Below are positions 349 to 55,139 of a DNA stretch of 62,057 bases, one piece after another (positions within the stretch are counted from its first letter, which is position 1; every line of letters starts with the position of its first letter). A model generated the notes under the pieces. The model was not told the DNA's origin, made no database searches, and saw only the letters and a list, made by a program, of their open reading frames with translations. Origin of the DNA: a virus (lineage: Duplodnaviria > Caudoviricetes); IMG/VR virus record IMGVR_UViG_3300032267_000290, positions 1-62,057 of that record; one strand, 5' to 3'. The position numbers and the translations under genes are program-made.

Positions 349-2394
349 ATGCCACTACAGAAACTACAATTCAAACCAGGTTTAAACAGAGACCAAACAA
401 ACTACACCAACGAGGGTGGGTTCTTTGAGTGCAATAAGGTGCGCTTTCGTTCTGGCTATCCTCAAAAAATTGGCGGTTGGTTACGCTACGGGACATTTAC
501 AGTAGTAGGTATTTGCCGTCAGATGTTTAACTGGATTACCACGGCTTCGGATAACTATCTAGCCCTTGGGACGTCTAAAAAACTTTACATTGAAGCGGGT
601 CAGATTCTAAATGACATTACCCCTATACGGCAGACTTTTACTAGTCCAACTACCAATAACTGTTTTACCACTGTCAATCTTTCTAAAACCGTCACCGTTG
701 CAATTACATCCCATGGAGCTTCAGACGGAGACTATGTAACCTTTTCAGGAGCTACAGCGGTAGGCGGGATTTCTGCGACCACTCTAAATACTGAGTTTAT
801 TATTACCTTAATAGACTCAAACTCCTTTACGATTACCGCTGCGACTGCGGCTACGTCTTCGACTTCTGGCGGTGGCACGGGAATTACAGCAGCTTTTCAG
901 ATTAGCGTAGGAAATAATAATGCTGCATATGGAAACGGTTGGGGTGCAGGTACATGGAGTCGTGGAGCTTGGGGTTCTGGAAGCGCTACGCCAGTCGTTC
1001 TTTCTCAACGAGATTGGTTTTTACAAAACTTTGACAATGATTTAGTCGCTAATATTCGTAATGGCGTTATCTATTATTGGAAATATTCAGGTGGTCCATC
1101 AACTAGAGCTACCCCACTGGCTACTACAACCATAGACGGTGTTGCTCCTGCTGATGTTCCTACACAAGCAACGCAAGTTCTAGTTTCTCAAAACGACAAA
1201 CACTTACTTTGTTTTGGTGCTACCCCTTATGGAGGAGGTTCATTTGACCCTCTATTAATTCGCTGGGCAACCCAAGATCAGCCTAATGTATGGACACCTT
1301 TAGTTACAAACTCGGCAGGTTTTATACGGGTTTCTCGTGGTTCAGCCATTGTTTGTGCAGTAGCAACCCGCCAAGAGATTTTGGTTTATACCGAGGGAAC
1401 TTTAAATTCTCTCCAGTTCGTAGGCACCACAGACGTCTTTAGTCTTAATGAGCTTTCGGATAATATCTCAATCCTTAGCCCCCGTTCAGTTGTAGTCGTA
1501 AATAACACGGCTTATTGGTTTGGACATGACAAATTCTATGCCTATACAGGACGGGTTGAGACTTTACCTTGTTCCTTAAGAAATCATGTTTTTCAAGATC
1601 TAAACTACAGTCAAGCCGACCAGATTGTTTCTGGATCGAATGAGGGCTGGAACGAGGTCTGGTGGTTCTACCCAACGGCAGACAGTCAAATTAATAACGC
1701 CTACGTCATCTACAACCACTTAGAAAAAATTTGGTACTACGGCACGATAGACCGTACTGCGTGGTCAGATTCGTCTCTAAGGGAATACCCTCAAGCTGTT
1801 ACAGGAACCTATGTTACAGGTTCTATTGCTTCTACGACTTTGACAGTCACTGCGGTCTCGGTAGGCGTCTTACAAGTCGGCTCTGTCATTACTGGAACGG
1901 GCGTAGCTACAGGAACCACAATAACGGCTCTAGGCACTGGGACTGGCGGGATTGGGACTTACACAGTCAATATTTCTCAGAGTGTCGTATCAACTGCTAT
2001 TACGGCTGACAGTATTATTTATAACCATGAGCAGGGACTAAATGACGGCACGAATGCGATGACATCGTTTATTTCGTCTTCAGACTTTGACCTGGTAGAT
2101 GGGGATCAGTTTATCCTAACTAAACGAATTATCCCTGACCTTAGTTTTACGGGATCGACTGCCACTTTGCCTGCGGTCACAATGTATATCAAACCACGGA
2201 ACTTTCCTGGCAATGCATATTCCAATACAGACTCCGAGCAGGTCATCGAGACTTCCGTAGACATATATACCGAACAGATCTTCATGCGGGCTAGGGCTAG
2301 GCAGATGGCTATTCAGATTGAATCAACCGACTTAAACGTCCAATGGCAGTTAGGTAGTCCAAGATTGGATGGCAGACCAGATGGGCGCAGATAA
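349..2394 (+). CDS. Tail nozzle / packaged-DNA stabilisation protein (P22 gp10 / tubular-B-like) with inserted Thr/Gly-rich domains
   Basis: 681 aa, beta-rich, ends in RARARQ..I.I...WQLG..RLD...DGRR; lies just before the internal virion proteins. Confidence 0.7.
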
Positions 2395-2690
2395 TGGCAA
2401 TGCAAAAGTTCCGAGCGCCAGCCTTGCCGCTTGCGACACCAGAATACGACCAACAGCAACTGTCTCAGTTAATCGGGGTTTTAAGACTATATTTCACCCA
2501 GTTAGACTCAAACGTGCCTTTACAGGCAGACGGGATCAGACTGTTAAATTTGCCAACATCGGGGTACAATTTGCCAGACGGCACTGTATTTCAAGTTGGC
2601 GAAGACTTGCGGATTGTTGTACCTTATATTTCTTATCTATTTGGAGTATCAGCCACAGCTAGTGTGGGGACGGTAACGGTAACGGTATGA
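2394..2690 (+). CDS. Virion structural protein (hypothetical)
   Basis: Coupled ORF; LP.ATPEYD...LRLYF N-terminus typical of the gene after the nozzle. Confidence 0.6.
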   Translation: MAMQKFRAPALPLATPEYDQQQLSQLIGVLRLYFTQLDSNVPLQADGIRLLNLPTSGYNLPDGTVFQVGEDLRIVVPYISYLFGVSATASVGTVTVTV

Positions 2691-3052
2691 AACCATCAGA
2701 AATTATCCTAAACGATAAAGAATCCATAAAAGCTGGAGCCGAAAAGGTATTGGCGTCTGTACAAAAATTAGTAGGTTCTGGACATGGTGTTTTGTTGCAG
2801 AACAACAATTCTGTTTTGTTGTTGGTTCGTCTTGGAGACGGTTTGGTTGAGCTTCATCTGTATACTTTAGATAAACCAATAACTGTAGCAAAATCTATTA
2901 AATACTTTATTCAAAAGATTAAGGCATCTGACCTAAAGGCGGTTTATGGAACAGCCCCTATGGACTCACCTGTCGTACAAATGCTTAATATAAGTGGAGT
3001 TAAAGTAGAAAAATCAAATTTGCCAAACTTTCAATGGATGGCTAAAGTATGA
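2687..3052 (+). CDS. Hypothetical protein (position of the GNAT-like virion assembly gene in podoviruses)
   Basis: ATGA-coupled ORF; function inferred from synteny only. Confidence 0.5.
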   Translation: MKPSEIILNDKESIKAGAEKVLASVQKLVGSGHGVLLQNNNSVLLLVRLGDGLVELHLYTLDKPITVAKSIKYFIQKIKASDLKAVYGTAPMDSPVVQMLNISGVKVEKSNLPNFQWMAKV

Positions 3053-5694
3053 GATACCACCTAGAATCCACTCTTCCTATTCACGCTTTCCAACCTTTAG
3101 GCGGAAGACATAACCCGTTTAAACACGGAATGACTTTAGAAGGCGGTGGTGGTGGAATAATTAGTAGTATTGGTGATGCATTTAGTGGAGTTGGTGACGC
3201 ACTTAGTGGTGTTTTTGAATCAATTGATAGTAATTTAGTTAACCTAGATAAAACGGTTGGTGATGTAGTACCTGGAGGTTGGGCAACAGTTGCGGCTATA
3301 GCGGTTCCTTATGCTGCTCCTTATTTTACTGGTGCAGCACTAACTGCTGGACAAGCGGCTGCATTATCTGCTGGTACAAGAGCAGCTACTGGAGCAATTA
3401 AAGGTGAAGATCCAGAAGATATTTTGAAAGGTGCCGCTTTAGCTGCCGCAGGTTCATATGGTTTAAGTTCTTTAGGCGGTTCTGATGTAGCCAGAGATTT
3501 TGATTATGTACCTGAAGTAGCTAGAGATTTTGATTATATTCCTGAATCTGTTCCATTAGAAAAAGCAATACAAACATCACCTGAACCTGCTGTTCCTATA
3601 GAAGAGTTTGGTCCTACAGATACAGAATTAGGTCGAACTGAGATGTCAGATATAGACCCAACAAGGATGGAGGGAGTTAGATCATTAGTAGCTGAATCTG
3701 GAGTAGATCCAATGTCAGCTACAGGAGGTCGTTTTGATCCATTTATAGGTGTAAACCCAACAAGTAATATTTATACAGACCTACCCGTTGGATATGAGTT
3801 TATGGGTCCAAACGGAATGGAAATAGTTGGTCCTAATGGAAAAACATATTTACAAAAAGATTTATATAACGCTTTAAGTGATTTAAGTAACCCACAAACT
3901 GTTCCATTTGATTCTCCAACTTTAGATAAAAGTATTAATTTTGATAATTTTTCACAAAATGTAAAGTTAGATGCTAGACCTTATATATTAGATTACGACC
4001 CACAAATTTCAGCATTTCAACCTGCGGATAGTAATCAAGCACTACAAAGTCAGTACGAAACAAATATTAATGATTTAGGTGCTGGTACAAGTCCTTATGG
4101 AGAAGCAAATGAACTTTCCAGCATTAACGAATTAGTAAAAGATCCATTTGCAAATCCAAGACCAAATTTCTTAGATGACCCATTAAAAAACATTTCTAAT
4201 AGAACGTCTGATGCACTTGAGTATGTTAAAAATGCTCCAGAAAATGCATACAAATACTTAAGAGATACCCCAATAAAAGAAATGGGGTCTGATCTTTATG
4301 ACTTTACTGGAAGAAATTTACCTGCAATTGGTTTGGGAGCATTAGCTTTATCTAGCATGGGTGGACAACAGCCACAGCCTCAAGGTCAGCCTGCTACGGC
4401 TGATTCACGATACACAGGTGGTTATGGATCCTCTGGTTACACAGGTGGTTATGGATCCTCTGGTGGTGTTTCTGACCCTTATTTGTTAAGAAATCGAATA
4501 AACGCAGCTAATATTTACAATTATAGAAATCCATATACATCTCGATATGCCGAAGGAGGAGAGGTGAAACATTTTGCCTTGGGCGGTATTTCTAATGCTA
4601 TTACACGATTTACTCAACCTATTGAAAAAGCTATTATTCAACCTATAGGACAGGCTCTTCCTTTCTTAAAAGACGTAGCTCCTTATGCTGGAATCCTAGC
4701 CGCTCCGTTTATTGCTAGTCCTTTTGCTGCCGCAGGAGTTGGAGCTTTGTCTTCTGGATTTGGTAGACCAGGCACAGGATTTGATATGAAACGTGCCTTG
4801 ATGGGCGGTATAGCTGCTTATGGTGCATCCACTGTTGGTGCTGGTTTAGAGGCTGCTGGACAAGAAAATTATGCAATGCCTGATGGCGGAACTGGATTTA
4901 CAAGCGGCTCTATGGATGACGCCATAGGTGCTGTAAAAGAATCTCCTAAGTCTTTCTTTAGAGACACTGACGCAATGCAAAAAGGCGTTGGTAATTTGCT
5001 TGGCTCTGATTCTAAAGCGGCAGCAGCACGATTTGGAACTGAAGCTGGAGTATTTAAATCAGGAGTTCCATTAGTTATGGGAACGTCTGGAATGATGGCT
5101 ATAGATGAAGCCAGTAAGATGCGAGAAGAAGCAGAACGTTCTGCTGGAGTAGGGAGGCAAGAACAGGCGGATATGTTAGCTAGAATATCCAAGGGCAGAA
5201 AACGGGCAGAAGACGCTGTAAGGGCAAACCCTTATATGTATGCTATGGGCGGCTCAGTAGATGATGAACTAGGCGGAGACTACTCTGCTATGGGTATGGA
5301 TCAGGGCAATATGCAAAAAGGTCTGTTTGGTCTTGGCTATGCTGCTGGCGGTATGCCAAGTCTAGCTTTAAGTAGACTTTCTCAACCAGCCTTTAATGAG
5401 GGTGCTGTAGGTGGTATGCAACAGTTTGCTACTGGCGGCTCTCCTCGATTTTTATCAGGCGGTGGAGATGGTATGAGTGACTCTATCCCAGCTACAATAG
5501 GTGGAACTCAAGAAGCTAGATTGGCTGATGGTGAGTTTGTTATTCCTGCTGATGTAGTGTCTCATCTTGGAAACGGGTCTTCCAAGGCTGGTGCAAAACA
5601 GTTATATTCCATGATGGATAGGGTAAGAAAAGCTCGTACAGGCAATGAAAAGCAAGGTCGTCAGATTAAACCTAATAAAATGATGCCCGCTTAA
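3049..5694 (+). CDS. Internal virion/ejection protein with repeated [YF]AxGG motifs
   Basis: 881 aa, Gly/Ala-rich; C-terminal GGGDGMSDSIPA...ARLADGEFVIPADVV domain. Confidence 0.7.
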   Translation: MRYHLESTLPIHAFQPLGGRHNPFKHGMTLEGGGGGIISSIGDAFSGVGDALSGVFESIDSNLVNLDKTVGDVVPGGWATVAAIAVPYAAPYFTGAALTAGQAAALSAGTRAATGAIKGEDPEDILKGAALAAAGSYGLSSLGGSDVARDFDYVPEVARDFDYIPESVPLEKAIQTSPEPAVPIEEFGPTDTELGRTEMSDIDPTRMEGVRSLVAESGVDPMSATGGRFDPFIGVNPTSNIYTDLPVGYEFMGPNGMEIVGPNGKTYLQKDLYNALSDLSNPQTVPFDSPTLDKSINFDNFSQNVKLDARPYILDYDPQISAFQPADSNQALQSQYETNINDLGAGTSPYGEANELSSINELVKDPFANPRPNFLDDPLKNISNRTSDALEYVKNAPENAYKYLRDTPIKEMGSDLYDFTGRNLPAIGLGALALSSMGGQQPQPQGQPATADSRYTGGYGSSGYTGGYGSSGGVSDPYLLRNRINAANIYNYRNPYTSRYAEGGEVKHFALGGISNAITRFTQPIEKAIIQPIGQALPFLKDVAPYAGILAAPFIASPFAAAGVGALSSGFGRPGTGFDMKRALMGGIAAYGASTVGAGLEAAGQENYAMPDGGTGFTSGSMDDAIGAVKESPKSFFRDTDAMQKGVGNLLGSDSKAAAARFGTEAGVFKSGVPLVMGTSGMMAIDEASKMREEAERSAGVGRQEQADMLARISKGRKRAEDAVRANPYMYAMGGSVDDELGGDYSAMGMDQGNMQKGLFGLGYAAGGMPSLALSRLSQPAFNEGAVGGMQQFATGGSPRFLSGGGDGMSDSIPATIGGTQEARLADGEFVIPADVVSHLGNGSSKAGAKQLYSMMDRVRKARTGNEKQGRQIKPNKMMPA
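4411..4464. repeat. Perfect 27-bp tandem duplication (YTGGYGSSG x2)
   Basis: tacacaggtggttatggatcctctggt occurs twice. Confidence 0.9.
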
Positions 5695-5704
5695 AGGATA
5701 AATT

Positions 5705-6610
5705 ATGGCTCAAACTACTACAGTAACAACAGGTCAACAATCAATTCCGCAGGAGTTAATGCCGTATTTTACTGGCGTTGATCAAGCCTATGGAATCCTG
5801 CCTAAAGCACAAGAAGTATTTGCTAGAAATTACGCTACAGCATATGGTAATCCTTTAGCCGCTCAAGGATTAGAGGGTGCTGGTCGTATTGCTGGACTGT
5901 CGGCTCAAGAAGAAACCGCAGGACAACAAATTGCGGCAATGCAACAACCAGCACAATTTACCACTGGGTATGGCGCTTACGGTCAGGGATTGGGTGCTTT
6001 AGGTTCTATGTTAAGTCCTGAGCAGACTCAAGCCTATATGTCGCCTTATGCTCAGAACGTTATTGACGTTAATAAAGCAGAAGCATTAAGGGATGCACAA
6101 AAAGGATTAATGGCACAAAACTTAGGTGCTGCCCGTCAAGGAACTTATGGTGGAGCTAGACAACTATTAGCCCAGACTGAAGCCGATAGAAATCTTCAGA
6201 CTAAGTTAGGTCAAATACAGGCTATGGGTTTACAAAACGCCTTTGAAGCCGCACAGAAAGCTCAGTTAGGTTCTGCTGCTACCTATGGTCAATTAGGTCA
6301 AGGATTAGGTCAGCAAGGTGCGTTACAGCAACAGACAGACCTAGCCCGCTCTACCGCTTTAGGAGCGTTTGGTGGTACAGAACGTAGTGTTGCACAGCAA
6401 CAATTAGACGCTCAGTATCAAGACCAAATGAGAGCTTTAGGTTTCCCAGAGCAACAGTTAGGTTCTTTTGCCAATATCCTCCGTGGCGTCCCATTAGGAG
6501 ATTCTGCTGGTACTCAAACCATGACCACTCCACCTCCTAGTTTTGCTAGTCAATTAGCTGGTATTGGTTTGGGAGGTCTTTCCTTATTTAATATGATGGG
6601 TCAAAAATGA
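5705..6610 (+). CDS. DNA ejection / pilot protein
   Basis: Gln/Ala/Gly-rich; YMSPY..NV and GTYGGARQ motifs; hydrophobic Gly-rich C-terminus. Confidence 0.7.
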   Translation: MAQTTTVTTGQQSIPQELMPYFTGVDQAYGILPKAQEVFARNYATAYGNPLAAQGLEGAGRIAGLSAQEETAGQQIAAMQQPAQFTTGYGAYGQGLGALGSMLSPEQTQAYMSPYAQNVIDVNKAEALRDAQKGLMAQNLGAARQGTYGGARQLLAQTEADRNLQTKLGQIQAMGLQNAFEAAQKAQLGSAATYGQLGQGLGQQGALQQQTDLARSTALGAFGGTERSVAQQQLDAQYQDQMRALGFPEQQLGSFANILRGVPLGDSAGTQTMTTPPPSFASQLAGIGLGGLSLFNMMGQK

Positions 6611-8460
6611 GCATCTTATCCGCCATCCGTCAGCAATCTGGTTCTATTGATGACCTAGCTAAACTCCCGCAAGCCATGATTATGCAGATGGCTCAACGCA
6701 AACAAATTTCTACTGAAATGGTAGCTCCTATCCTTGCCCGCAAAGCAGAAATGATAGACGCTGCTGCTAAATCCAAAGCTATGCAAGGCGGTCTTCCACA
6801 GACGTCCGTGATGGAACAGATTATTGCCCAGAACTCTGCGGCAGAACAACCACAACAGATGCCACAAATGGAAAACACTGGGGTAGCTCAATTGCCAGTA
6901 CCAGAGCGGTCTTATGCTGGTGGTGGAATTATTGCGTTTGCTAAAGGCAGTTTAATTGAAGATGATGACGATGACATAGATCCATATGATGACTATGTAA
7001 AAGCTAATGCTGCGGTTCAAAAAGCTAATGCAATGCCTGTTGCAAGGTCTGTTCTTCCACAAAGCTACGAAGCCGCCTTAGCTGAGAAAGGTCAAACCCC
7101 TGCCTCTGTCCGTAAAATGATGATGGAAGGACCTAAAAAAGGTGACTATGTTATGCCACCAATGGACGTTCCTAAACGTGGCGGTCATAAATATGAAGAT
7201 GCCGTTATCAAAGAAGCCCAGCGTCTAGGGGTAGACCCTAGCCTTGCGTTGCACGTTCTATACAAAGAAACAGGCAATTTAACAAATCCTGAAACAGCCA
7301 AGTCTAAAGCTGGTGCTATTGGTGTAATGCAACTAATGCCTAAAACTGCTAAAGGTCTAGGTGTAGATCCACTAAATCCAGAAGAGAACATTCGTGGCGG
7401 TGTAACGTATCTTAAGCAAATGTATGACAAGTACCAAGATCCTACCCTTGCTTTGGCTGCTTACAATGCTGGTCCTGGTCGGTTAGACAAAGCTTTAAAG
7501 AGCGGGCAAGGAATAGCTGGATTGCCACGGGAAACACAAAATTATGTAGTTGCCAGCCGTATGGCTAGTGGCGGAGAAGTTCAACATTTTGAAACTGGCG
7601 GTCAACCAAGAGTTGGTAGAGCTGGTCAAGCCACTGGTTCTAATTTTTTCCCAGAAAGCCAAAGAACTACAGCAGCTAAAAAGAATCGTACTGCCGATGC
7701 TATTCCAGAAGAACCAAAAAATCGTGGAACTCAAAATCAAATTCAGGGAGAGCAAGAAGAAAAAGCAGCGTTACCCATTGATTTTAAAACTGCTCCCGTT
7801 CTAATGGATAGTCCAACTTATGCAGAGTTAGGATATACACCTCCTGCTAATGCAACAGCAGCAACAGCAAAAACTCCAATGGAATTATTTTTAGAACAAA
7901 ATGCCGCAGATAGAGAAGCTCTTGGTAAACAACGTCTAGAAGATAGAAACATGGCTTTATTAGCCGCTGGTTTAGGGATGTTAGGCGGTGAGTCTCCTTA
8001 TGCTTTTGCCAATATTGGTAAGGGCGGATTGTCTGGCGTTTCTTATCTTTCTGATGCCAATAAACAAAGAGCGGCACAACAGGCTGCATTAGACAAAAAC
8101 CGAGTTGCTGCAATGCACTATGGAAACGTAGGCAAATATTATGAAAGTCAAATATTAGATAAAGAAGAAAGACAAAAACTAGGCGAACAAAGATTGCAAG
8201 AAACTGCATTTCAAAATGCTATTCGTTATAGAGATATGATGTTAAATAGACTTAAAGCAGAAGGATTTGATCCAGCATTAATAGCTGCTTTGCCTAATAC
8301 TGACCCACAAAAAAGAGCATTTAATCAACGTTTATCTGAAATTGAAAACGATCCTTATCTTTTAGAGCAATACCGTAAAGCTGGTATGCCACTAAAAGAA
8401 AAACCAGTTGCAGCTAGTAATGTAAGAAATTATGATTCTAAAGGTAAAGAAATCAAATAA
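6607..8460 (+). CDS. Internal virion protein with soluble lytic transglycosylase (SLT) domain
   Basis: KETG...SKAGAIGVMQLMPKTA...ENIRGG..YL...ALAAYNAGPG...ETQNYV. Confidence 0.85.
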   Translation: MSILSAIRQQSGSIDDLAKLPQAMIMQMAQRKQISTEMVAPILARKAEMIDAAAKSKAMQGGLPQTSVMEQIIAQNSAAEQPQQMPQMENTGVAQLPVPERSYAGGGIIAFAKGSLIEDDDDDIDPYDDYVKANAAVQKANAMPVARSVLPQSYEAALAEKGQTPASVRKMMMEGPKKGDYVMPPMDVPKRGGHKYEDAVIKEAQRLGVDPSLALHVLYKETGNLTNPETAKSKAGAIGVMQLMPKTAKGLGVDPLNPEENIRGGVTYLKQMYDKYQDPTLALAAYNAGPGRLDKALKSGQGIAGLPRETQNYVVASRMASGGEVQHFETGGQPRVGRAGQATGSNFFPESQRTTAAKKNRTADAIPEEPKNRGTQNQIQGEQEEKAALPIDFKTAPVLMDSPTYAELGYTPPANATAATAKTPMELFLEQNAADREALGKQRLEDRNMALLAAGLGMLGGESPYAFANIGKGGLSGVSYLSDANKQRAAQQAALDKNRVAAMHYGNVGKYYESQILDKEERQKLGEQRLQETAFQNAIRYRDMMLNRLKAEGFDPALIAALPNTDPQKRAFNQRLSEIENDPYLLEQYRKAGMPLKEKPVAASNVRNYDSKGKEIK

Positions 8461-8469
8461 GGGGTCAGT

Positions 8470-11400
8470 ATGGCAATTACCGCTCAATTATTTGACGGAA
8501 CTATTTTGCAGTTTCCAGATGATACGGATAAATCCGTTATTGATAGGACTGTAAAAAGGGTTACAGAAGAAAAACAAATAAAACCTGATACTGGTTTTAC
8601 TGGTGCTTTTTCAGCGGGAAAAGAACGTTTAAAAGGTGATGTAGCACTTCTGGCTGGCAAAACTGGACTAATGAGTCTAGAAGATGCTGAACGCTATAAA
8701 GAAGAAAAAGACGCTTTAGCTCAGAAAATGTTTAAACCAACCGAAGAAGGTTGGTCTCAGGCTCCATTTTTAAAGTTTAGAGAAACCCTAGGCGGTTCTC
8801 TTCCCTATATGGCTGCTCCATTAGCTGCTGGTGTTGGAGCTAAAGTTCTTGGTGTTGGTGCAGGTGTTGGTCTTGCTGGCGCTGGACTTGCCTCTTTAGG
8901 ACAGTTCACTGGATCTAACCTTTCCCGCCAAATAGAAACAGGCAAGTCTTTGGAAGAAGCCAGCCTTGGTAAGGCTGCTGCTGCCGCTGTTCCGCAGACA
9001 GCTTTAGACGTTGTTTCCTTAAGAATGATCCCATCGATTGGCAGACTCTTCGGTGCGGCTGGCAAAGAAGTCACTCCAGAACTAGCCAAGAAGATTGCCG
9101 AGCAAGGAATGCTTAGAACCACTGCCGCTTATGGTGCTGGTTCAGCCAAGTTAGCTGGTATTGAAGGTGCTACCGAAGTCGGGCAACAGTTCCTAGAACG
9201 CCTACAGGCTGGTTTAAACATCTCAGACCAACAAGCCAGAGATGAATACTTTGATAGCTTTATTGGCGGTGCAGTCCTTGGCGGTACATTAGCCGTACCT
9301 GGCACTTACTTAGAGCGTGGGGCTACCATCAGCAAGGGCAAGCAGATGGAAGAGGATCAAAAGCAACAAGCTATCCTTGACCGTAAAAAAGCTGAACAAG
9401 AAGCCGCCTTGGCAGAACGTCAACGCATACAAGAAACCCAACAAAAACTAGGGGTTGACACTAAGACTCTAGCCCTACCCGCTCCAGAGAAAAAGTACGT
9501 AGAGCCATCCGAAGACGATCCTTTATTTAATCCTTTGGGACGATTTAAGACTACTGACCTTAGTGCCAAGGAAATTGCAGAGATTAACCAACGCAGACAG
9601 GCGATGGGCAAGGCTCGTATTGGCAAGACTTTCTCTATTGAAGACTTGGCTGATGTCTTTACCCCAGAAGAGACTAAGACCGCAGAAGGTGTCCTAGGAC
9701 GCTTAGTAGCCTCTAGGACGGGTTTTCAGGCTGGAGATGACATATCCCCTGCAACTTTAAATTTAGCCGCCCAGCAACGTGGTATTTCTACCGATACTCA
9801 AGGCTTTAGAGACTTCCTAGAAAGAACCACTGGAACTAACAGTTTGGAGAATATGTCTCCTCCCCAGCGTTTGGCGGTTAAACAGGCTTTAGAAAACATC
9901 CCTGAAGGGGCAGAATCCCAAGTCCTACAGGCTGGTATTACTACGGTTAAACACTATACCCCTGAGCAATATACCCAGACCATTGGCGGTATCAATAAAG
10001 AATTTGCCGAAGTGGGCAATAAGCCTAACGGCAGAGAGAGCATACTTAAACAGATTGAGCAATATAGCGGTCTGACTAGACGGAAAGACCAGCAACGTCT
10101 TTTAGACCAAGCCATCCTTAGCGGTGACTTGGAGCGTGTCGTTGAGGTTCGGAACGTCAATGGTGTGGAAAAGAATGTGGAGATGATCCAAAAACCCACC
10201 CCAAGAAAAGAGCTGCCTGGCGGCATGGACATCCGTAGAGAAACGTTTAAACAGGGAGAGACTCCTGATCTTTATGAAATTCGCTCTGGCAGTCGGGTCA
10301 TCAACCAGAAGGAAACTGCTGAGGAAGCAGAAGAGGAACTGGTCATACATGAGAAAAACCGTCAGGCTAAAGTTATTGACCTAGAGAAAAAAATTGCCAG
10401 TTTACAGGCTGGTATTCAAAAGCGGGAAGCTGATTTACTTAATGATCGGTCATTGGGACAGGATCAGGACAATGCTTTCTTTATTAAGTCAGCCAACTAC
10501 TATGGTCAGGATCAGGTAGCCAACCAAGATATTGCCAACCTACGGCAACAACAGCAACAATTTGCCCAGCCTATTCAAATAGTGCCTGTTGGTACTAGAG
10601 CATTGACCCAAAGCAAGTTTACCTACTATGAAAAAGGTAAGCCAACTGTTAAGTTTGACAGCGAAGAACAGGCTGAAGCATATGGCATAAGCCGTTTAAA
10701 CGACCAGACATTGCAGCAGATCATTGATTCTGCCTCAGCACAGAAACAAACAGGCAGAGTAAAGCGTTATGTAAACTTAGCCCAAAAAGAACTAGACTCC
10801 CGCACTGGTAAGAAGCCCGCAGGTATTGAAATTACCACTAAACAGGGGCTAGAAGGTGCTGAACAACGTTTAGAGAAGCTTGGTCTTATTAAAGCAGAAG
10901 CACAAAAGAAGCTAACAGACAATATAGAGGCTCTTCGCAAGTCTTTAATGCCAGTCCTTAAACGTTTTGGTTTGGAAAAAATTGGTTTAGACATTGTTGA
11001 GAGCATTGAAAACGGCAAAGCAGATGGTTCTTACGTTAAAAACTTAATTACATTGGCTCTAGATGCTAAAGATGTCATGGGAACTCTCCGCCATGAGTCT
11101 ATCCATGCCCTTAAGGAGCTTGGTGGCTTTACCGATGCAGAATGGAAAGTCCTAACCAATAAAGCTAAGACGGAATGGGTTCAAAAGTTTATTAAAGATC
11201 GTGGTCTGTTTAAACGTTATCAAGACCAATACAAACAGGACTACGGCACATTAAAAGGCTTTGACGAGTACATTCAAGAAGAGGCTATTGCCGAGGCTTT
11301 CCGTTTCTACAGCAAAAACAAACTGCCAGCAGGCATGATTGGCAACATCATTGTTCGCTTACAGAAGTTCTTTGAAGCTCTCCGTAACTCCCTTAATAAA

Positions 11401-14400
11401 CTAGGCTTTACTACCGCCACAGACATCTTTAACAAGATTGAAGAAGGTGGCATTAAGACTCTTGAGCCTGTTAAAGAGGGTGAAGCCGTTAAATACGACA
11501 AAACAAGACGTATTGATATGGACTTTAAACAGGTCACCGAACGTATTCCTGAGTTACAAGAGGGAATGGCAAAGCTTGAGGCTGGAGAGATAACCGCCAA
11601 ACAATACGACAAGCTGGTTAATAAATACAAAACAATCATGCCGTATGATTTTGTTCCAAAACCAGCTACAAAAGCAGAGGCTATAGGTGCTATTGAAGAT
11701 AAAGAGACCTATGGTGTTCCATCTAAGACATTAAAAAATGGTCACCCAGTTGGCTTGAGACTAGATATTCCAGCATATAGTCGTTATGGGGTATGGGTTC
11801 CTACCATCCATGAACAAGCATCAGGATTTGGTGCTGGCAAAAAGATTGGGCATGAAAGCGTAGCCTCAGTAACTAATGCCACATTTGGTATGTCTGAAAA
11901 AGCTGCCGCAAGTATTGCTGGTGGAAAACCAAAAGGCACGATTGCCACCATTAAAGGTAGCTACAAAAAGATTAGTGAAAAAGATGCAGTTGCAAGAGCA
12001 GAAGAAGCTTTAAACGATCCAACATGGACACAGGTTGGTATGGATCCAGAACGTCATAGCTATTTCTATGACCGTAAAACAACCGAACCTGTTGTTTCTG
12101 CCGATGAAGTGATTCAGATTGGCCCGCTCGTGCTGGCAAAAAATGCGGTATATGCACCTAAATCACAGTTTAAGTATTCCTTAAGAACAGATAAAAAAGA
12201 AATTACACCTCTTAGTGTTGAGCAAGCCATCATTTACGATAATGAGTTAGAAGGCTTAATTAAAAAAATTGGCAACCGTATCGTTGGCATGAAGTCTGAA
12301 GAGACTTTGGAAGACGTTAAAAAAGCCGTTAAAAAGCTACAAAGCTATACCGCTCAGGGTTTAAAAGGCAAGGATTGGTACGAGCGTTCAGCAAAAGCAG
12401 TGCTTAGTGCGTTTAATAATGACGCAGTACTAGCAGAGAAGTTCTTTCAAGTTATTGCTATTACATCCGCCAACACTGAGGTTGCCGCAAACTTTACCAA
12501 AGCAGCTAATGCGTGGACTCAGTTTGCCGAAGGTAGACCAATCAAGATTGGTACAGAAAACGAAAACAAGAAGATCGATGCTCTTCTTAACTTTGGCGAA
12601 GAATGGGAAGGTCGCAAGACTAATACCTTCTATAGCAACCTAATGGAAGCAATGGATGGTAAAGACAGTGGTCGTTCCACTATTGACCTCCATATGACAA
12701 GAATGATATTTGGTAAAGACGTACCTACCGATGCCCAGTATGAGTTGGCAGAGAATATGGTGCGTTTACTAGCATCTAAACTTGATGTAGCACCACGTCA
12801 AATACAGGCGGCATCTTGGGTAACCCAAAAAGCCAAGACCATGTTTGAAGACTATCGTGCAAAGGGATGGAAAAAAGACCTAAGCGATGAGGAATTAAGC
12901 CAGTTTGCGTTTGAACGTGCTGTAGCAGACTACTCACATCAAATGCAAAAACGGGTTTCACAGTTGCCAATTACAGGGGCTTTGCTTGAGCCTTCTAAGG
13001 AAATTAAAACACGTGTACAGAATATTACTGGTGAAGTTATTCCTTCCGTGCAGTCAGAAATGGCTCAGGCTGAAGAACTTAACTTTAATTACAAAGAAAA
13101 GCTTACTAAAGAGATTGCCAACGCTAATACCGTTCAAGCAATTGCCAAATATATTGGTGTACAAAGCAAGATACGGGTAACTGTTGGCTCTGGAGCGTAT
13201 GCTAAAAAAGTCAATCCTAATCTAATCGTTCAAATTATTAATGACGATGCCGATGTAGCAGAAAAAGACGCTTTAGATATGGCAAACGCCATGTCCTACG
13301 TGTTTAAACAGGATGCTACCCCGTTTTTTAGAGCGGATCCTAAGTTAATAGACACCGATCAAATTGGCTTTAAACTTAAATTTGATACCGCTATGCTTAC
13401 ACCAGCACAGCAAAAGAAAATACTTGCCATTTTCCAAAAGAAATTTGGCAATGATGCTGGTTTTACTAGAATTCGCAGTAACGAGTTAGTTATAATTAAC
13501 TATCGTGGCGAGAACGGAAAACCGTTTTTAGTGCCAGATGAAGAGTTTATGCAAGGGCTTGCTGATATTCGTGATGCAATCAGCGAGGTTTCACCAATAG
13601 AATCCCAAGAAATGTTTGGGGCAAAATCGGAGTATCCATACCATGACTGGAAAGAAGAGCCTAGTGGAGTTGGGATTGTCGCTGGGATTCAAAATCGCAG
13701 ACCCGAACAGTCCGATATACAAAGAGGGCTTGACGATTTCCGTGAATCCTTTGTCGGATCAGTTAGAGAAACAATCAGACAATCGGGAAAAGAACCCAAG
13801 TTCTCCCTCAGAGCAGAAGAATTAGCTCCTGAGAGTAAGTATTCTCTAGCGTTGGGTAACATAGACCCAACCACGTTCTTAGTCTCAGAGAAAAACCCCA
13901 ACAACACGGGCAACCTAGCGTTTATGCCAGGTTCCGCACCATTTGCCAAATACCCTATTCGCCTACCTGTTGGTACGCATGATGACATTAGCGATCAAGG
14001 CTATGGAGCAAATCACATCCTTAGACGGATGCAGACTGACGTTAAACGTAGACCCGCTGAGGTTACCAAAGAACGTTTAGAAGATTTAATCCTTCACATT
14101 GAGGATCTTGGCAAACGGTTTAAACGGGTATATCGCAGCGGACCTCAGTTAGTTCTTTACGACCCACTGACTGACGATGCTATGTTTGTCAAACCTCTGT
14201 CTGACCATTACGAAGTACAAAGTATGTACAGTGATGCCCGTATTCCAACCAAATACGGTGATGCCGCTTGGTCTGGCAAGAATATACAACCGATAGAGGC
14301 TAAGAAATTTGAAGAAAAGCAACGTGGCATTCTGGTGCAAGCCAGCAAAGAAGGTCGTGTTGAGCCTAAACCTATTGGTATTAAGGTAAAACGTGTCATT

Positions 14401-18114: not shown

Positions 18115-18116
18115 GT

Positions 18117-42618: not shown

Positions 42619-43578
42619 ATGGCTACGAAAGCTTGTACCGATGAAGAATTTATTGCCCTTTGGAGGCAACACCAATCTCCTGAAAAGGTTAGTCAGGTTA
42701 TCGGTGTTAGCACTCGCAATGTTTTAAAAAGGCGCAGAAGAGTAGAACAACAATATGACATTATTTTAGATGCATTATCTCCAAACGGAATGCCTAAGGT
42801 TTACATTCCCGATGAGCAAATGCAAGCCAATGTCACTCTTGATAATGGCACCATTTTAGTTGGCTCCGATTGCCACTACAATCCAGAGTACGTTACGACA
42901 GCCCACCGAGCGTTTGTTGAGTTTGTAAAGTATCTAAAACCTAAAATTGTGATTCTCAATGGTGATATAGCTGACTTTGCTAGTATTTCACAACATCATC
43001 GCATTGGCTGGCAGAAAAGTCCCACAGTCAAAGAAGAGTTAGATGAGATTCAAGACAGGCTTGGGGATATTGAGCAAGTAAGACCGCCAGGCTGTAAGCT
43101 GATGATTACGATTGGTAATCACGATTTAAGATTCTCAGGCAAACTTAGTAATGTCTTGCCAGCCTACGAGGGCATCAAGGGTTTTGATATTGCAGATCAC
43201 ACCCCGCATTGGAAGTGGTACTGGTCAATCATGGTCAATCAGACTTGCATGATAAAACATCGGTGGCATAACGGAGTTCATGCGGTCTACAACAATGCCA
43301 TTAAATCGGGAACGAGTTTCGTCAGCGGTCATCTACATTCTCTTAAAATTACCCCTTGGACAGATTACACAGGCACAAGATATGGCGTAGATACTGGCAC
43401 AATGGCTTGTATTAAGGATAATCAATTTAGTTATACAGAAAATAATCCAGTCAACTGGAGGGCGGGATTTGCAGTATTAACATTTATTAATGGCAAACTC
43501 ATGCCCCCAGAGCTGGCAGAGGTTGTCAACGAAGACGAGGGTTTAATTTATTTCCGTGGTAAGTTAATAAAAGTATGA
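42619..43578 (+). CDS. Calcineurin-like metallophosphoesterase with N-terminal HTH-like segment
   Basis: SDCH, NGDIAD, GNHD, H, GHLH motifs. Confidence 0.85.
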   Translation: MATKACTDEEFIALWRQHQSPEKVSQVIGVSTRNVLKRRRRVEQQYDIILDALSPNGMPKVYIPDEQMQANVTLDNGTILVGSDCHYNPEYVTTAHRAFVEFVKYLKPKIVILNGDIADFASISQHHRIGWQKSPTVKEELDEIQDRLGDIEQVRPPGCKLMITIGNHDLRFSGKLSNVLPAYEGIKGFDIADHTPHWKWYWSIMVNQTCMIKHRWHNGVHAVYNNAIKSGTSFVSGHLHSLKITPWTDYTGTRYGVDTGTMACIKDNQFSYTENNPVNWRAGFAVLTFINGKLMPPELAEVVNEDEGLIYFRGKLIKV

Positions 43579-43928
43579 AGTTAACACCCAAAATTATTGA
43601 AAATATCTATGCAATGCTGTATTGCACAGAGCCGTTTTCTGATTGGGGTTTACCCTTACCTGAAGAAATTAAGTTTATTGTAGATAGTGACCCTGAAACA
43701 ATGGGTACTTATCTCTATGATGATGGCGAAAAATACGCTCATACTATTACCATCTCTGACGCTAGGTGTGGGCATTTAGATACGGTCATTAGGACTATGG
43801 CTCACGAGATGATTCATGCCAGTCGCTGGGACACCATTACACAGGCTTGGACAAAACACGACAAAACTTTTAAAAACAGAGCAAAAATGGTAGCAACTGA
43901 GCTTGGATTTGACCCCCTTGAGTTGTAA
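43575..43928 (+). CDS. SprT-like HExxH metalloprotease
   Basis: TMAHEMIH...H...F. Confidence 0.7.
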   Translation: MKLTPKIIENIYAMLYCTEPFSDWGLPLPEEIKFIVDSDPETMGTYLYDDGEKYAHTITISDARCGHLDTVIRTMAHEMIHASRWDTITQAWTKHDKTFKNRAKMVATELGFDPLEL

Positions 43929-45785: not shown

Positions 45786-46098
45786 GACTCCTGCGTGGCA
45801 ACGCAAAGAGGGCAAAAACCCTGAAGGCGGTTTAAACGCCAAGGGTAGAGCTTCGTATAACGCAGCCAATCCTGATAAGCCTGGACTTAAGCGTCCTCAG
45901 CCAGAAGGTGGATCAAGAAAGAAATCTTTCTGCGCCAGAATGTCAGGTATGAAGAAAAAGCTCACATCTGCTAAAACAGCCAACGACCCAGATAGCCGCA
46001 TCAACAAGTCATTACGTGCTTGGAACTGCAAAGAAGGCGGGTCTGTTCGTGGTGGTGGCTGCGAAATACGTGGCAAGACTAAAGGGAAAATGGTATGA
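45778..46098 (+). CDS. Basic protein (DUF6321-like)
   Basis: MAKTPAWQRKEGKNPEGGLNAKGR...RKKSFCARM...SLRAWNC. Confidence 0.7.
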   Translation: MAKTPAWQRKEGKNPEGGLNAKGRASYNAANPDKPGLKRPQPEGGSRKKSFCARMSGMKKKLTSAKTANDPDSRINKSLRAWNCKEGGSVRGGGCEIRGKTKGKMV

Positions 46099-46328
46099 AT
46101 ATGTTAGAACTTTGGACTGGTGGTCTTACTATTTTTATTGCTTTTATTGGATATGTCATGCACGAAAAGTTCAATGATCTAAAACGAATTGATATTCTTT
46201 TGAATAAAACCCGTGAGGAGGTAGCTCGTGATAACGCAACTAAAGCAGAAGTTGAACGTATTGTTGAACACATGGATGCAAGGTTTAACAAACTTGAAGA
46301 CAAAATTGACCAGCTTATTAAAAGGTAA
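46095..46328 (+). CDS. Small membrane-anchored coiled-coil protein
   Basis: N-terminal TM helix; RFNKLEDKID. Confidence 0.65.
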   Translation: MNMLELWTGGLTIFIAFIGYVMHEKFNDLKRIDILLNKTREEVARDNATKAEVERIVEHMDARFNKLEDKIDQLIKR

Positions 46329-46331
46329 ATA

Positions 46332-46766
46332 ATGCCAAGTGTTTCAAAAAAACAACACAATTTCATGGCAGCAGTGGCTAATAATCCCAAGTTTGCCAAA
46401 AAAGCAGGAGTACCTTCTTCTATTGGGAAGGAATTTTTAACTGCCGACAAAGGCAAAACGTTTAAACGGGGTGGTGAGATGAAAGAATCCAAGATGATGG
46501 TTAAAAAAGAAGTTGATTTTATGAAAAAGAAAGGCGCTCCAAAGTCCATGATTAAACATGAAATGGGCGAAATGAAGGGCATGAAAAATGGCGGTATGGC
46601 ATCTATGAAAAAAGTAGCTACTAAAGCCGTCAAAGGACATGAGAAGCGTATGCACGGCATGGCTGGTGGCGGTAAAGTAGGTCAGCTATCTAAATCTGAT
46701 GGATGTGCCACTAAAGGCAAATCTAAAGGCAAAATGGTCAAAATGAAATACGGTGGAGCTTGCTAA
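46332..46766 (+). CDS. Lys/Met-rich basic protein
   Basis: MPSVSKKQHNFMAAVA; repeated xKxGG; DGCATKGKSKG. Confidence 0.7.
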   Translation: MPSVSKKQHNFMAAVANNPKFAKKAGVPSSIGKEFLTADKGKTFKRGGEMKESKMMVKKEVDFMKKKGAPKSMIKHEMGEMKGMKNGGMASMKKVATKAVKGHEKRMHGMAGGGKVGQLSKSDGCATKGKSKGKMVKMKYGGAC

Positions 46767-50670: not shown

Positions 50671-51108
50671 ATGGCATTTACAGGTAATTTCATGTGTACC
50701 AGCTTCAAAGTAGAGCTGATGCGAGCAGTTCATAACTTCACAACTGGCACAGGTAACACGTTTAAACTGGCTCTGTATGACAACTCAGCGTCATTCACGG
50801 CTGCGACTACTGCGTATACAGCCACAAACGAAGTAGCTGCTTCTGGTACTTATTCTGCTGGTGGTGGGACATTAACAAACGTAACTCCTACATCTTCTGG
50901 AACTACAGCGTTTACTGACTTTGCTGACTTATCGTTTACGTCTGCAACCATTACTGCATACGGAGCAATGATTTATAACGACTCAGCAGCTGGCGATCCT
51001 TCAGTTTGTATTCTAGACTTTGGTGGTGCTAAGACTTCCACAGCAGGTACGTTTACGATTATTTTCCCAACAGCAGACGCAAGCAACGCAATTATTCGTA
51101 TTGCCTAG
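50671..51108 (+). CDS. Tail-associated structural protein
   Basis: MCTSFKVEL...FKLALY...LDFGG.KTS..GTFTI.FP. Confidence 0.7.
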   Translation: MAFTGNFMCTSFKVELMRAVHNFTTGTGNTFKLALYDNSASFTAATTAYTATNEVAASGTYSAGGGTLTNVTPTSSGTTAFTDFADLSFTSATITAYGAMIYNDSAAGDPSVCILDFGGAKTSTAGTFTIIFPTADASNAIIRIA

Positions 51109-53767: not shown

Positions 53768-54129
53768 GCAATGTAAGCATAGCCCTAGGGGGATTTGGTA
53801 GTCAAGGCTGGGGTGATGCGGCTTGGGGATTTGGTAATGTATCCGTTGTTGCCACAGGATTTGTAGGATCTGTTTCTATAGTAGGTACAGGTAACGTCAA
53901 TGTTACAGGTTCACAGGCTTTAGGACAGGTAGGTAGCGTAACAGTAGGGGAGGGAATAGGAGTCTTTGTAGTGGGCGTTAGCTGTACGGCAAGCGTCACT
54001 TCGGTTTCTGTTTGGATTACGATAAATGATAACCAAACACCAAGCTGGGTACCTATAAATGACTCGCAATCTTCCCCTTGGAATGATATTATTGACACAC
54101 AATCGCCCAATTGGGCTGAGATAGCATAA
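53764..54129 (+). CDS. Gly/Val/Thr-repeat tail protein (paralog of the upstream gene)
   Basis: Same repeat; shared W..IND.Q.P.W C-terminus. Confidence 0.65.
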   Translation: MSNVSIALGGFGSQGWGDAAWGFGNVSVVATGFVGSVSIVGTGNVNVTGSQALGQVGSVTVGEGIGVFVVGVSCTASVTSVSVWITINDNQTPSWVPINDSQSSPWNDIIDTQSPNWAEIA

Positions 54130-54137
54130 GGATAATT

Positions 54138-55139
54138 ATGGCATCCACATATAGCGACCTAAAAATAGAGCTAATTGGTACTGGCGAACAGACTGGTACT
54201 TGGGGTACCACGACCAACAACAACTTTTCTATAGCCTTAAGCGAGGCTATTACAGGCTCGGCAGACGTAGCTTTTTCAAGTGCAGACGTCACTGTTACCC
54301 TAACAGATACAAATGCCTCCCAAACTGCCCGTAATCTGCGTTTAAACCTAACAGGCACTTCAGGCGGGGCAAGGCAATTAATCCTTGGTTCAGGCTGCCA
54401 GATTGAGAAATTATACTTAATAAACAACGGGTTAGCCGATGCCGTCACAGTTAAGAACACGTCAGGTACAGGCATAGCCGTTGCAGCTGGTAAGTCAATG
54501 TTTGTCTACAACAATGGTACTAACGTAGTAGACGCAGTTACTTATTTAACTTCTTTGACCCTTGGCACAGCCCTTCCAGTAGCTTCAGGCGGCTCTGGCG
54601 CAGCTACTCTAACTGGAGTCTTAAAAGGCAACGGCACTTCAGCGTTTACCGCAGCCACAGCAGGAACAGACTATGTAGCACCTGGAACTGCAACGACATT
54701 TACAGCCCTACAGACCTTTGCTGGTACGTCTTCTAACGCAGACCTCAAGACTTCTAATATTATTGAGACCGCCACAATATCAGCCACAGCAGCAACAGGC
54801 ACCATTAACTACGACATTACAACTCAGTCAGTCCTGTACTACACAACCAATGCGTCAGCAAACTGGACGGTCAACTTCCGTGGTTCATCGGGTACATCAC
54901 TTAATACTGTTATGGCTACAGGCGAGTCTATGTCTGTCACTTTCTTGGTTACTCAGGGTGCAACAGCTTATTACAACTCGGCAGTCCAAGTAGACGGCTC
55001 TTCAGTCACTCCTAAATGGCAAGGCGGTTCTGCCCCAACAAGTGGTAATGCCTCTTCTATTGATTCATATACTTACGTAATTATTAAAACGGGAAGCGCC
55101 GCATTTACCATAATCGCAGCTCAAACCAGATTTGCTTAA
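54138..55139 (+). CDS. Tail fibre proximal protein
   Basis: MASTYS.LKIELI.TGEQ.GTWG.TTN.N. Confidence 0.7.
   Translation: MASTYSDLKIELIGTGEQTGTWGTTTNNNFSIALSEAITGSADVAFSSADVTVTLTDTNASQTARNLRLNLTGTSGGARQLILGSGCQIEKLYLINNGLADAVTVKNTSGTGIAVAAGKSMFVYNNGTNVVDAVTYLTSLTLGTALPVASGGSGAATLTGVLKGNGTSAFTAATAGTDYVAPGTATTFTALQTFAGTSSNADLKTSNIIETATISATAATGTINYDITTQSVLYYTTNASANWTVNFRGSSGTSLNTVMATGESMSVTFLVTQGATAYYNSAVQVDGSSVTPKWQGGSAPTSGNASSIDSYTYVIIKTGSAAFTIIAAQTRFA

Follow-up and report, generated by a model that had tools for sequence, protein, structure and literature searches.

The tailed phage genome IMGVR_UViG_3300032267_000290 (Duplodnaviria, Caudoviricetes) carries 40 exact copies of the 8-bp palindrome GTTTAAAC in 62,057 bp. 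The record is one contig with a CheckV completeness of 99%; it was analysed over its whole length and is called the window in the following. The word is under selection as DNA, and in many phages it accompanies a single gene, located in the window at 31606–32172 on the minus strand, which encodes a SprT/Wss1-like zincin with a C-terminal tail made up of a KQxTRxxK motif and a zinc ribbon (SprT-ZnR). We consider it fairly probable that the GTTTAAAC sites are docking sites for SprT-ZnR, which would contact them via its tail.

Abundance of the octamer

GTTTAAAC is the commonest 8-mer of the window. An initial annotation of this DNA had listed at least 39 copies, all at correct positions, and one more was found at 14607. 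Its estimate of 1–2 copies from single-base composition agrees with the first of the Markov expectations, which for orders 0–6 (window k-mers) amount to 1.45, 1.79, 1.84, 3.28, 5.96, 12.95 and 21.6, the top orders already including the 6- and 7-mers of the word itself. In 100 dinucleotide-preserving shuffles the mean was 1.67 (standard deviation, sd, 1.25; largest 5). When synonymous codons were shuffled 1000 times within each of 84 crude gene calls, the mean rose to 5.7 (sd 2.05, largest 14), compared to 32 copies observed inside genes. The enrichment, which the initial annotation had been prepared to give up if it disappeared under a higher-order Markov or codon-preserving null, is real, and neither composition nor coding accounts for it.

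The possibility that the word stems from codon usage, from the amino-acid content of the proteins or from a repeated element was considered as well. The encoded proteins do lift the expectation, from about 1.8 to 5.7, but the observed 32 copies exceed the maximum of 14 from the 1000 codon-preserving shuffles, eight sites lie outside genes and the flanks are unique. Rejected by the dinucleotide shuffles, the Markov models and the codon-preserving null, an artefact of this kind has practically no chance of accounting for the array.

The preferred form of the site is YGTTTAAACR, in that Y precedes the octamer in 32 and R follows it in 30 of the 40 sites; as the flanks are otherwise unique, the word does not belong to a mobile or repeated element. 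G...C ends are borne by 40 of the 100 TTTAAA hexamers. The 12 one-mismatch variants add up to 37 copies at an expectation of 38, none of them being enriched or depleted, so that selection is directed at the exact octamer and no sign of near-cognate conversion is seen. Two codon phases are used by the intragenic sites, x-L-N (15) and x-F-K-x (17). These had been reported initially together with a third, V-stop, which turned out to occur only at gene ends, e.g. at 18115. Both codon choice and amino-acid choice are bent towards GTTTAAAC.

Distribution and conservation of the sites

The array is uneven. Between 17854 and 34700 there are 24 copies (order-1 expectation 0.42; 14.3 per 10 kb in 17.9–34.7 kb) and in the giant gene at 8470–17853 there are nine (expectation 0.29; 9.6 per 10 kb), compared to five in 34701–62057 (0.82) and two in 1–8469 (0.24). 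The remaining 35.8 kb of late genes hold seven copies at 1.07 expected, about 2 per 10 kb. The skew noted at the outset is reproduced by these counts, and the density differs about 7-fold between the genome halves at even GC. Although the giant gene closes the late operon, its site density (nine in 9.4 kb) resembles that of the early region. Called genes contain 32 of the 40 sites, eight lie outside, and eight are located at most 25 nt from a gene boundary (3.9 by chance). Within 8.47–34.7 kb the coefficient of variation of the spacing is 0.68, compared to 0.97 (sd 0.16) when sites are placed at random (p = 0.011), which is only suggestive of regular spacing. The sites are listed below with the gene or gap in which they lie (CDS, coding sequence); fractions give the aligned relatives in which the site is intact.

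380–387: CDS 349–2394, plus strand
3117–3124: CDS 3049–5694, plus strand
8730–8737: giant gene 8470–17853, plus strand
9212–9219: giant gene
10245–10252: giant gene
10694–10701: giant gene
11208–11215: giant gene
13302–13309: giant gene
14118–14125: giant gene
14607–14614: giant gene; the added site, intact in the distant relatives G064 and G006
16893–16900: giant gene
18115–18122: minus-strand gene junction; 18117–18383 ends with the TAA of the site, the next gene begins at 18114
18483–18490: CDS 18478–18750, minus strand
19833–19840: methyltransferase gene 19746–20675, minus strand
20489–20496: the same methyltransferase gene
21711–21718: CDS 21559–21825, minus strand
22140–22147: ERF gene 22093–22707, minus strand; 2/6
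23762–23769: RusA gene; 22/23
24245–24252: CDS 24083–24289, minus strand; 3/3
24312–24319: CDS 24286–24537, minus strand; 5/5
25262–25269: primase/helicase gene; 13/28
25817–25824: primase/helicase gene; 30/39
26605–26612: immediately 3' of the primase stop codon; 3/3
26653–26660: intergenic; 3/3
27428–27435: CDS 27230–27490, minus strand; 2/5
28010–28017: divergent gap 27988–28077; 3/3
29627–29634: between 29514 and 29629; 54/56
30376–30383: AAA_5 ATPase gene; 5/66, a young site
31222–31229: AAA_5 ATPase gene; 17/18
31750–31757: within the SprT-ZnR gene; 25/33
33157–33164: intergenic; 9/10
33385–33392: CDS 33367–33582, minus strand; 7/7
33642–33649: divergent early/late gap, 12 nt before the small-terminase start; 7/7
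34354–34361: CDS 34316–34555, plus strand; 6/6
34604–34611: 8 nt into CDS 34596–34808, plus strand; 10/10
36473–36480: large-terminase gene, read as R-L-N (CGT TTA AAC); 20/51
45830–45837: intergenic
46460–46467: CDS 46079–46660, minus strand
50760–50767: CDS 50671–51108, plus strand
54340–54347: CDS 54138–55139, plus strand

For the conservation analysis the window was aligned to the loci of 100 relatives, yielding 359 high-scoring segment pairs (HSPs) that cover 20 of the 40 sites (22140–36473). At an HSP identity of 60–70% the sites were intact in 78/164 cases (0.48, other 8-mers 0.067), at 70–75% in 60/101 (0.59 versus 0.101) and at 75–85% in 50/55 (0.91 versus 0.227). Positional retention of GTTTAAAC is 4–7 times that of other 8-mers, in relatives that are not mutually independent. 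At 85–95% identity, 46/50 sites were intact (0.92 versus 0.576). Sites also turn over: the one at 30376 is intact in only 5/66, and some sites of relatives are missing from the window. The complete relatives G064 and G006 are too diverged for a genome-wide comparison, with five and three sites aligned, respectively. The exact DNA word is under purifying selection. Both the codon-preserving null and the positional conservation bear out the original suspicion that selection acts on the DNA word itself.

The word also doubles as a gene junction, reading GTT TAA AC followed by ATG with TAA as the stop codon. This use occurs once in the window and at least seven times among the 34 sites of Methylophilales phage Venkman (L051 1099, 2154, 2375, 2611, 3789, 4002 and 6657), and such reuse places a site free of cost.

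Association with the SprT-ZnR gene

All IMG/VR loci with a 53–100% identical SprT-ZnR (45/45 and 55/55) hold 3–25 copies of GTTTAAAC at an expectation of at most 0.56, and each of the 11 SprT-ZnR clusters formed at 50% identity shows 1.2–30 copies per 10 kb. In phage Venkman 34 copies were counted, chiefly in the first 15 kb, where 1.4 would be expected in total. A more distant set comprised 82 non-redundant loci from 143 fetched. Here the top-scoring 8-mer was GTTTAAAC or its one-base-shifted form in 24 loci. The exact word is absent in 18, of which 11 are enriched for the one-letter variant GTGTAAAC/GTTTACAC; this variant reaches 14 copies in Microbacterium phage Percival (0.29 expected).

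Repeating the count in relatives, as the initial annotation had proposed, gave word-rich loci where the gene is present and word-poor ones among terminase relatives where it is missing. By a profile search for SprT-ZnR that detected its positive controls, the gene is found in none of five named terminase relatives, which hold 3, 1, 0, 2 and 0 copies. The terminase family was represented by 39 contigs of 10 kb or more. In the 14 gene carriers among them the copy numbers are 17, 17, 9, 11, 28, 18, 16, 14, 24, 2, 8, 4, 0 and 2, compared to a total of 11 copies in 650 kb for the 25 without the gene. Low-count carriers use a mixture of words or a variant, and G028 uses neither.

The tie holds in the opposite direction as well. 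IMG/VR matches to GTTTAAAC-N30-60-GTTTAAAC were collected, the first 80 loci lying on 75 contigs, of which 72 were analysed; contigs with at least eight copies and at least 4 per 10 kb were classed as word-rich. Among the matches listed, the gene occurs in 27/32 word-rich contigs, the five exceptions being fragments of 18–31% completeness, and in 4/40 word-poor ones, these four holding 4–6 copies. The odds ratio is 48.6 with p = 8.6e-11, a value that overstates independence since the sample includes relatives of the window. The complete genomes among these matches show the gene in 5/5 word-rich and 0/4 word-poor cases. In G085 (29 sites) SprT-ZnR is the sole gene in common with the window, and G068 (41 sites) shares with it weak terminase and fibre matches, plus SprT-ZnR by profile.

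Two further window genes were tried as partners and rejected. The second SprT-like gene at 43575–43928 (PF10263, ribbon-less) has homologues in the records MW202674, MW202713 and MW202481, each of which holds 0 copies of the word. The PF01555 methyltransferase was found in one of 20 word-rich contigs (first batch) and in none of the complete genomes G064, G068 and G085, in a search that detected its positive control and covered PF01555 as the only methyltransferase family.

The latter result bears on the idea of a by-product similar to the cyanobacterial palindrome HIP1, be it methyltransferase-linked or repair-biased accumulation, or of a mark for the enzyme encoded at 19746–20675. We take GTTTAAAC to be the type II restriction site PmeI, which would speak for such a link; phages normally avoid restriction sites and do not collect them. 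The window does encode a PF01555 methyltransferase, a family that is the sole one of methyltransferases in it, and methyltransferases are described as recognising HIP1 (PMC4390886, PMC13756078). Besides the rarity of PF01555 in word-rich contigs, near-cognate words are neither depleted nor enriched, the density differs about 7-fold between halves of even GC, and related phages without the SprT-ZnR gene lack the word. A methylation mark, one of the functions suggested initially, did not hold up against these data, and we regard this origin of the array as very improbable. The recombination hotspot suggested alongside it gained no support either way; the word itself is palindromic, and the asymmetric variant of other lineages shows no strand preference (29 vs 33).

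The SprT-ZnR protein

The gene and its parts in the window are as follows.

31606–32172, minus strand: SprT-ZnR gene, the candidate reader; 188 aa, ATG at 32172, stop at 31606–31608, with an upstream GTG at 32232 as a possible start
31771–32172, minus strand: zincin domain, residues 1–134, supported by model confidence (pLDDT, predicted local distance difference test) and fold matches
31912–31926, minus strand: HELSH zinc-binding motif (H83, E84, H87), followed by H95
31609–31737, minus strand: C-terminal tail, residues 146–188, RKVQGTRMLK and then a CPHC...CPVDGH zinc ribbon; the proposed DNA-reading module

SprT-ZnR matches phrog_6361 and has no family match in Pfam, where PF10263 failed to appear at any E value up to 10; PF10263 is carried by 13–18% of the members of the nearest Atlas clusters. 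NCBIfam gave only one weak SprT match, for the protein of phage Venkman. Homologues were found in 164 phage records, most of them labelled 'SprT-like protease', and the cultured phages with the gene family include those of Arthrobacter, Microbacterium, Streptomyces, Bordetella, Pseudomonas and E. coli. All of 29 sequences share H87 and H95, and at least 90% of them keep H83 and E84.

The model of the whole protein has a pLDDT of 92.9. Residues 1–134 adopt the zincin fold, with matches to SPRTN (6mdx_A, Z 8.5, rmsd 3.3, 98 aligned), abylysin (4jiu_A, Z 8.1), selecase (4qhf_A, Z 7.7) and Wss1 (5xbn_A, Z 7.6); Z values near 8 are middling by the tool's own warning, and all top rows belong to one fold class. 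Foldseek returned no match for the whole model at E ≤0.001, and the family profile, run against the sequences of solved structures, gave nothing useful. The tail matches phrog_34373 and the end of phrog_6361 and has no match among Pfam families. Its consensus reads [KR]K-x-Q-[STG]-T-R-[ML]-L-K, then C..C-x-Y-x-[IV]-R and finally G-x-P-x-C-P.

Prediction with two copies of SprT-ZnR gave a score of 0.72, compared to 0.01 for the best of three controls; the mark for this pair score is reached by 20/30 proteins solved as pairs and by 1/23 solved as single chains. The runs agreed in at least 88% of contacts, with a partner pLDDT of at least 86, and place residues 3–7, 32–39, 53–72, 137–142 and 163–181 in a symmetric interface. 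Such a predicted symmetric homodimer fits a palindromic site and supports binding without showing it. One high-GC IMG/VR locus (L258) encodes a full-length SprT-ZnR together with a second, tail-only paralogue.

The tail as the constant partner of the array

The HELSH motif is intact in the window, and HExxH is present in 248/254 full-length homologues. In the other six it is replaced by IVQLAH, VAMLCH, ILPLLK or VLPLLV. The loci of these HExxH-less forms have a median of 15.3 sites per 10 kb versus 8.3 for the rest, and one of them, the complete 64-kb relative G064, holds 49 sites. Further loci gave two-piece matches that skip the catalytic helix, i.e. G080 (25 sites in 8.4 kb), G095 (43 in 33.9 kb) and G110 (31 in 17.4 kb), or matches to the tail only, i.e. 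G079 (42 sites in 19.8 kb), G081 (19 in 6.9 kb) and G090 (15 in 8.6 kb). In G079 and G081 the tail is a free-standing protein of 55–58 aa.

From the sequence comparisons, the tail is the invariant part of the SprT-ZnR family and the constant partner of the array. The densest arrays occur where the protease motif is lost or only a tail of about 55 aa is kept, which makes the tail the likely reader. As arrays are retained, and even reach their highest density, where the catalytic motif is missing, binding itself must matter, and proteolysis would then be an added function in most lineages, the present phage with its intact HELSH among them.

Weighing SprT-ZnR as the reader

Of the functions suggested at the outset, a binding site for a phage protein has become the best reading, SprT-ZnR being the protein that tracks the word. 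Several points weigh against it. All of the support is association. The gene occurs without GTTTAAAC or GTGTAAAC in 7/82 distant loci (L219, L220, L225, L236, L238, L247 and L273) and likewise in G028, and an ep3-like proteobacterial group has only 1–5 copies per 20 kb, at an expectation of about 0.1. The word-first sample, with its overstated independence, consists of the first 80 loci and is non-random. Much of the association reflects shared ancestry, since single linkage at 50% identity places 159 of 200 unique proteins in one cluster. In the window, no site lies just upstream of the SprT-ZnR gene. The tail taken alone (pLDDT 82) resembles only generic zinc ribbons, the best Z being 3.3 (desulforedoxin, MCM, ribosomal), and no tail residue cleanly separates 109 GTTTAAAC-type from 20 GTGTAAAC-type tails. 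That the protease motif has been lost where the arrays are densest counts against proteolysis as the essential activity. Finally, the word counts cover viral DNA.

Some of these points, namely the purely associative link, the eight gene-bearing loci without the word and the failure of the tail sequence to predict which word is used, would also agree with another phage or host factor reading GTTTAAAC, SprT-ZnR merely co-occurring with it, for example through a shared adaptation to a host system. No other window protein, however, recurs in more than 5/24 strongly enriched distant loci; the next best, the primase, is found in 5/24 and is absent from G085. No neighbouring gene family is common to all of the 14 diverse loci scanned, and genes reduced to the tail still accompany the densest arrays. 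The SprT-ZnR carriers range in GC from 29 to 70% and their hosts from Actinobacteria to Proteobacteria, which makes a single host factor unlikely. Overall, we judge a different reader to be improbable.

A role of SprT-ZnR binding in global transcription control has to be considered too. The sites would then form a dispersed operator or roadblock array shutting down or timing the early region, in the manner of the stoperators read by Cluster A mycobacteriophage repressors, with the zincin mainly as a dimerisation scaffold. The arrays are indeed concentrated in early regions (window, Venkman, G068 and G095), and the gene often heads an early operon, beside a divergent gap facing the terminase. 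In the window the divergent-gap sites 33642 and 28010 are intact in 7/7 and 3/3 relatives, in E. coli phage ep3 a copy lies 20 nt upstream of the gene of the SprT-ZnR homologue, and in high-GC phages 26 of the 88 sites of the variant lie between genes. The retention of arrays by catalytically dead and tail-only forms would be in accordance with such a role as well. Against it, 32 of the 40 sites are intragenic, nine of them within one late gene of 9.4 kb, and the two orientations of the asymmetric variant to the coding strand are about equally frequent (29 vs 33, p = 0.70; 13 loci), while the stoperators of mycobacteriophages are reported to work in one orientation only (PMC9283540). Owing to these two features a stoperator-like role fits poorly. 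A scan for promoter-like sequences in 17.5–35.5 kb gave 16 matches versus 31 in shuffles; the sites 33157 and 34604, which had been assigned to putative promoter spacers, lie inside none of them. An intact HExxH in 248/254 homologues would be needless for a pure repressor. We consider transcription control unlikely as the purpose of the array.

Proposed mechanism

In the mechanism that we propose, the GTTTAAAC copies, in the form YGTTTAAACR, would serve as docking sites on double-stranded phage DNA for SprT-ZnR made early in infection, presumably as the fourth gene of a leftward operon that starts beside the terminase. Two SprT-ZnR copies would pair via their zincin bodies, and the two tails would read the halves of the palindrome. 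Selection maintains about one site per 0.8 kb over 8.4–34.7 kb, a stretch with the early, replication and recombination genes and the gene of the giant, putatively ejected protein. This site-dense stretch would lie just upstream of the packaging start and in a headful phage would be packaged last and injected first; probably it is the first part of the genome to arrive in the cell. Through binding, a DNA-activated protease, or a mere bound protein where catalysis is lost, would be brought to phage DNA and not to that of the host. Most likely this would serve to remove host proteins bound to the entering DNA or to keep them away from it.

A more specific version of this mechanism is possible but, on balance, doubtful. 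Here GTTTAAAC would be a 'self' address on the first-entering DNA, read by the ribbon tail of a Spartan/Wss1-like protease, which would cleave DNA-bound host silencers, restriction or defence complexes and trapped enzymes on phage DNA only. Protein and address would have spread as a pair through unrelated phages whose hosts belong to several bacterial phyla, with occasional one-letter changes of the address, and some lineages would have been reduced to a pure binding protein.

Comparison with known systems

The stoperators of Cluster A mycobacteriophages are described as asymmetric 13-mers bound by a monomeric immunity repressor of the L5 gp71 type with a helix-turn-helix (HTH) and a 'stoperator' domain, and as lying in promoters and in short gaps between genes and functioning only in a single orientation with respect to transcription (PMC9283540). 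Both systems consist of a short sequence that is repeated more than 20 times across the genome, has one phage-encoded reader (here a candidate) and is kept by selection. The present site differs in being a palindrome of 8 bp (weakly 10 bp) that lies mostly inside genes and whose asymmetric variant does not follow transcription in its orientation, and the protein proposed to read it, a zincin ending in a zinc ribbon, is predicted to pair.

HIP1 (GCGATCGC) and other iterated palindromes of cyanobacteria are reported to be 15- to 300-fold over-represented in and between reading frames (PMC5861425, PMC4390886), and the conservation of HIP1 sites between genomes is taken to argue for selection rather than biased repair (PMC5861425). 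Similarly, GTTTAAAC is an octamer over-represented 22- to 28-fold in all contexts, with sites conserved between genomes beyond background. The precedent, which the initial annotation had invoked, applies to these statistics and not to the biology. HIP1 is described as belonging to the cellular chromosomes of a phylum and as being recognised by orphan methyltransferases, whereas GTTTAAAC is a phage trait across several host phyla, with carriers of 29–70% GC. It is uneven within the genome, follows one phage gene, is absent from gene-less relatives and has no methyltransferase partner as far as PF01555 is concerned. The account of HIP1 by Elhai 2015 (PMC4390886) makes no mention of phages. In its statistics the array is like HIP1 and in its logic like the stoperators, and it is a member of neither.

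In the SPRTN/Wss1/SprT proteins, DNA binding switches on proteolysis of DNA-bound proteins. They are described as DNA-dependent metalloproteases (PMC5127644). SprT-ZnR shares with them the minimal fold of a small zincin body with HExxH and a third zinc ligand, followed by a zinc-binding module for DNA contact (putative here); it differs in falling below the PF10263 threshold and in that the catalytic motif or even the entire body is gone from several lineages. To our knowledge, known members bind DNA by structure and not by sequence, and we know of no cognate-site array for any of them.

Cellular arrays of tens of dispersed palindromic sites with a dimeric reader, in which the uneven distribution carries information, are SlmA-SBS, Noc-NBS and MatP-matS. 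Their sites of 12–14 bp serve division-site or domain organisation, roles with which none of the present data connect the phage array. In full-text searches of the literature, neither arrays of GTTTAAAC or GTGTAAAC in phages nor DNA binding by phage SprT-like proteins were found described.

Genome context

The late genes, among them those for small and large terminase, portal, capsid and fibre, are encoded on the plus strand from about 33.6 kb through the end of the record to 17.8 kb. The early block at 17.8–33.6 kb lies mostly on the minus strand and comprises genes for a RecA-dependent nuclease, an N6/N4 methyltransferase, ERF, an exonuclease, RusA, a primase/helicase, a VWA protein and an AAA_5 ATPase. 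Features referred to in the text or adjoining it are the following.

8470–17853, plus strand: giant polyvalent protein, 3127 aa, with ART-PolyVal, LPD38 and DUF7178 domains
18747–18893: RelB-like protein, 48 aa, a very small protein of DNA-binding type
19746–20675, minus strand: PF01555 N6/N4 methyltransferase
34805–35035: winged helix of the LexA DNA-binding type, 76 aa, directly before the large terminase
42598–43578: calcineurin-like phosphoesterase, with a 4-nt overlap to the ribbon-less SprT-like PF10263 gene (117 aa) that ends at 43928

Neither the RelB-like nor the LexA-type small protein recurs in the enriched distant loci. The phosphoesterase and its PF10263 neighbour are also adjacent in phage record MW202674 (L001 8516–9822), and homologues are plentiful in metagenomes (188 proteins).

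Directly downstream of SprT-ZnR lie an AAA_5 (MoxR/CbbQ-like) ATPase and a VWA/CobT-like protein (28291–31587). The trio is also found in the relative G064, and the AAA_5 and VWA neighbours recur only in close relatives. Elsewhere, other neighbours were seen. In two of the word-densest contigs (L475 5797–8203 and L476 2220–4366) the free-standing ribbon gene is immediately followed by a protein of about 260 aa starting with MTTFGMEFEV and one of about 280 aa starting with MCGIAGYC, which resemble an amidoligase and a class-II glutamine amidotransferase. A Pfam Amidoligase_2 gene is located near SprT-ZnR in L314, and a DUF2201 VWA-like metallopeptidase 3 kb downstream of it in L243. The word-dense contigs L475 (11547–12227), L478 (2574–3254) and L479 (762–1454) have in common a protein of 226–230 aa, whose C-terminus resembles sigma-factor region 4 by eye and for which no counterpart was seen in the window.

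By large terminase, the nearest named relatives are 023Pt_psg01 (59%), the Pelagibacter phages HTVC027P and HTVC023P, DSL-LC04 and Synechococcus phage MinM2. Near-identical phages were not found in the phage collection, and no lysogeny genes were seen in the window. Searching genome contigs with the SprT-ZnR protein gave a single match, a fragment of 4.6 kb (L349, JBMOHW010000174.1) that is 99% identical to the SprT-ZnR region and was binned in a Terrimicrobiaceae metagenome-assembled genome (MAG); it is probably a mis-binned phage fragment and at best a weak hint to the host.

After GTTTAAAC, the next commonest 8-mers are TGGTGGTG (31 copies) and GGTGGTGG (29), probably owing to glycine-rich repeats. 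GCTGGTGG, which we take to be the E. coli Chi word, occurs 17 times on the plus strand and never on the minus strand; its copies span 6916–57997, mostly 55345–57997, and 12 of the 17 are inside a fibre-like gene of 1544 aa.

Implications

The array reveals strong selection for a DNA word in phage genes, overriding codon choice and even amino-acid choice. If the tail reads the word, protein and address would form a compact, portable pair with which phages label their DNA as their own in a wide variety of hosts. After the stoperators, this would be a second case of genome-wide site arrays in phages, mechanistically different from them, and SprT-ZnR would be the first SprT/Spartan-type protease aimed by DNA sequence. 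A testable function would thereby be available for the widespread 'SprT-like protease' family with its 164 records, and a module of about 45 residues that specifies 8 of 8 bases would also be attractive for DNA targeting.

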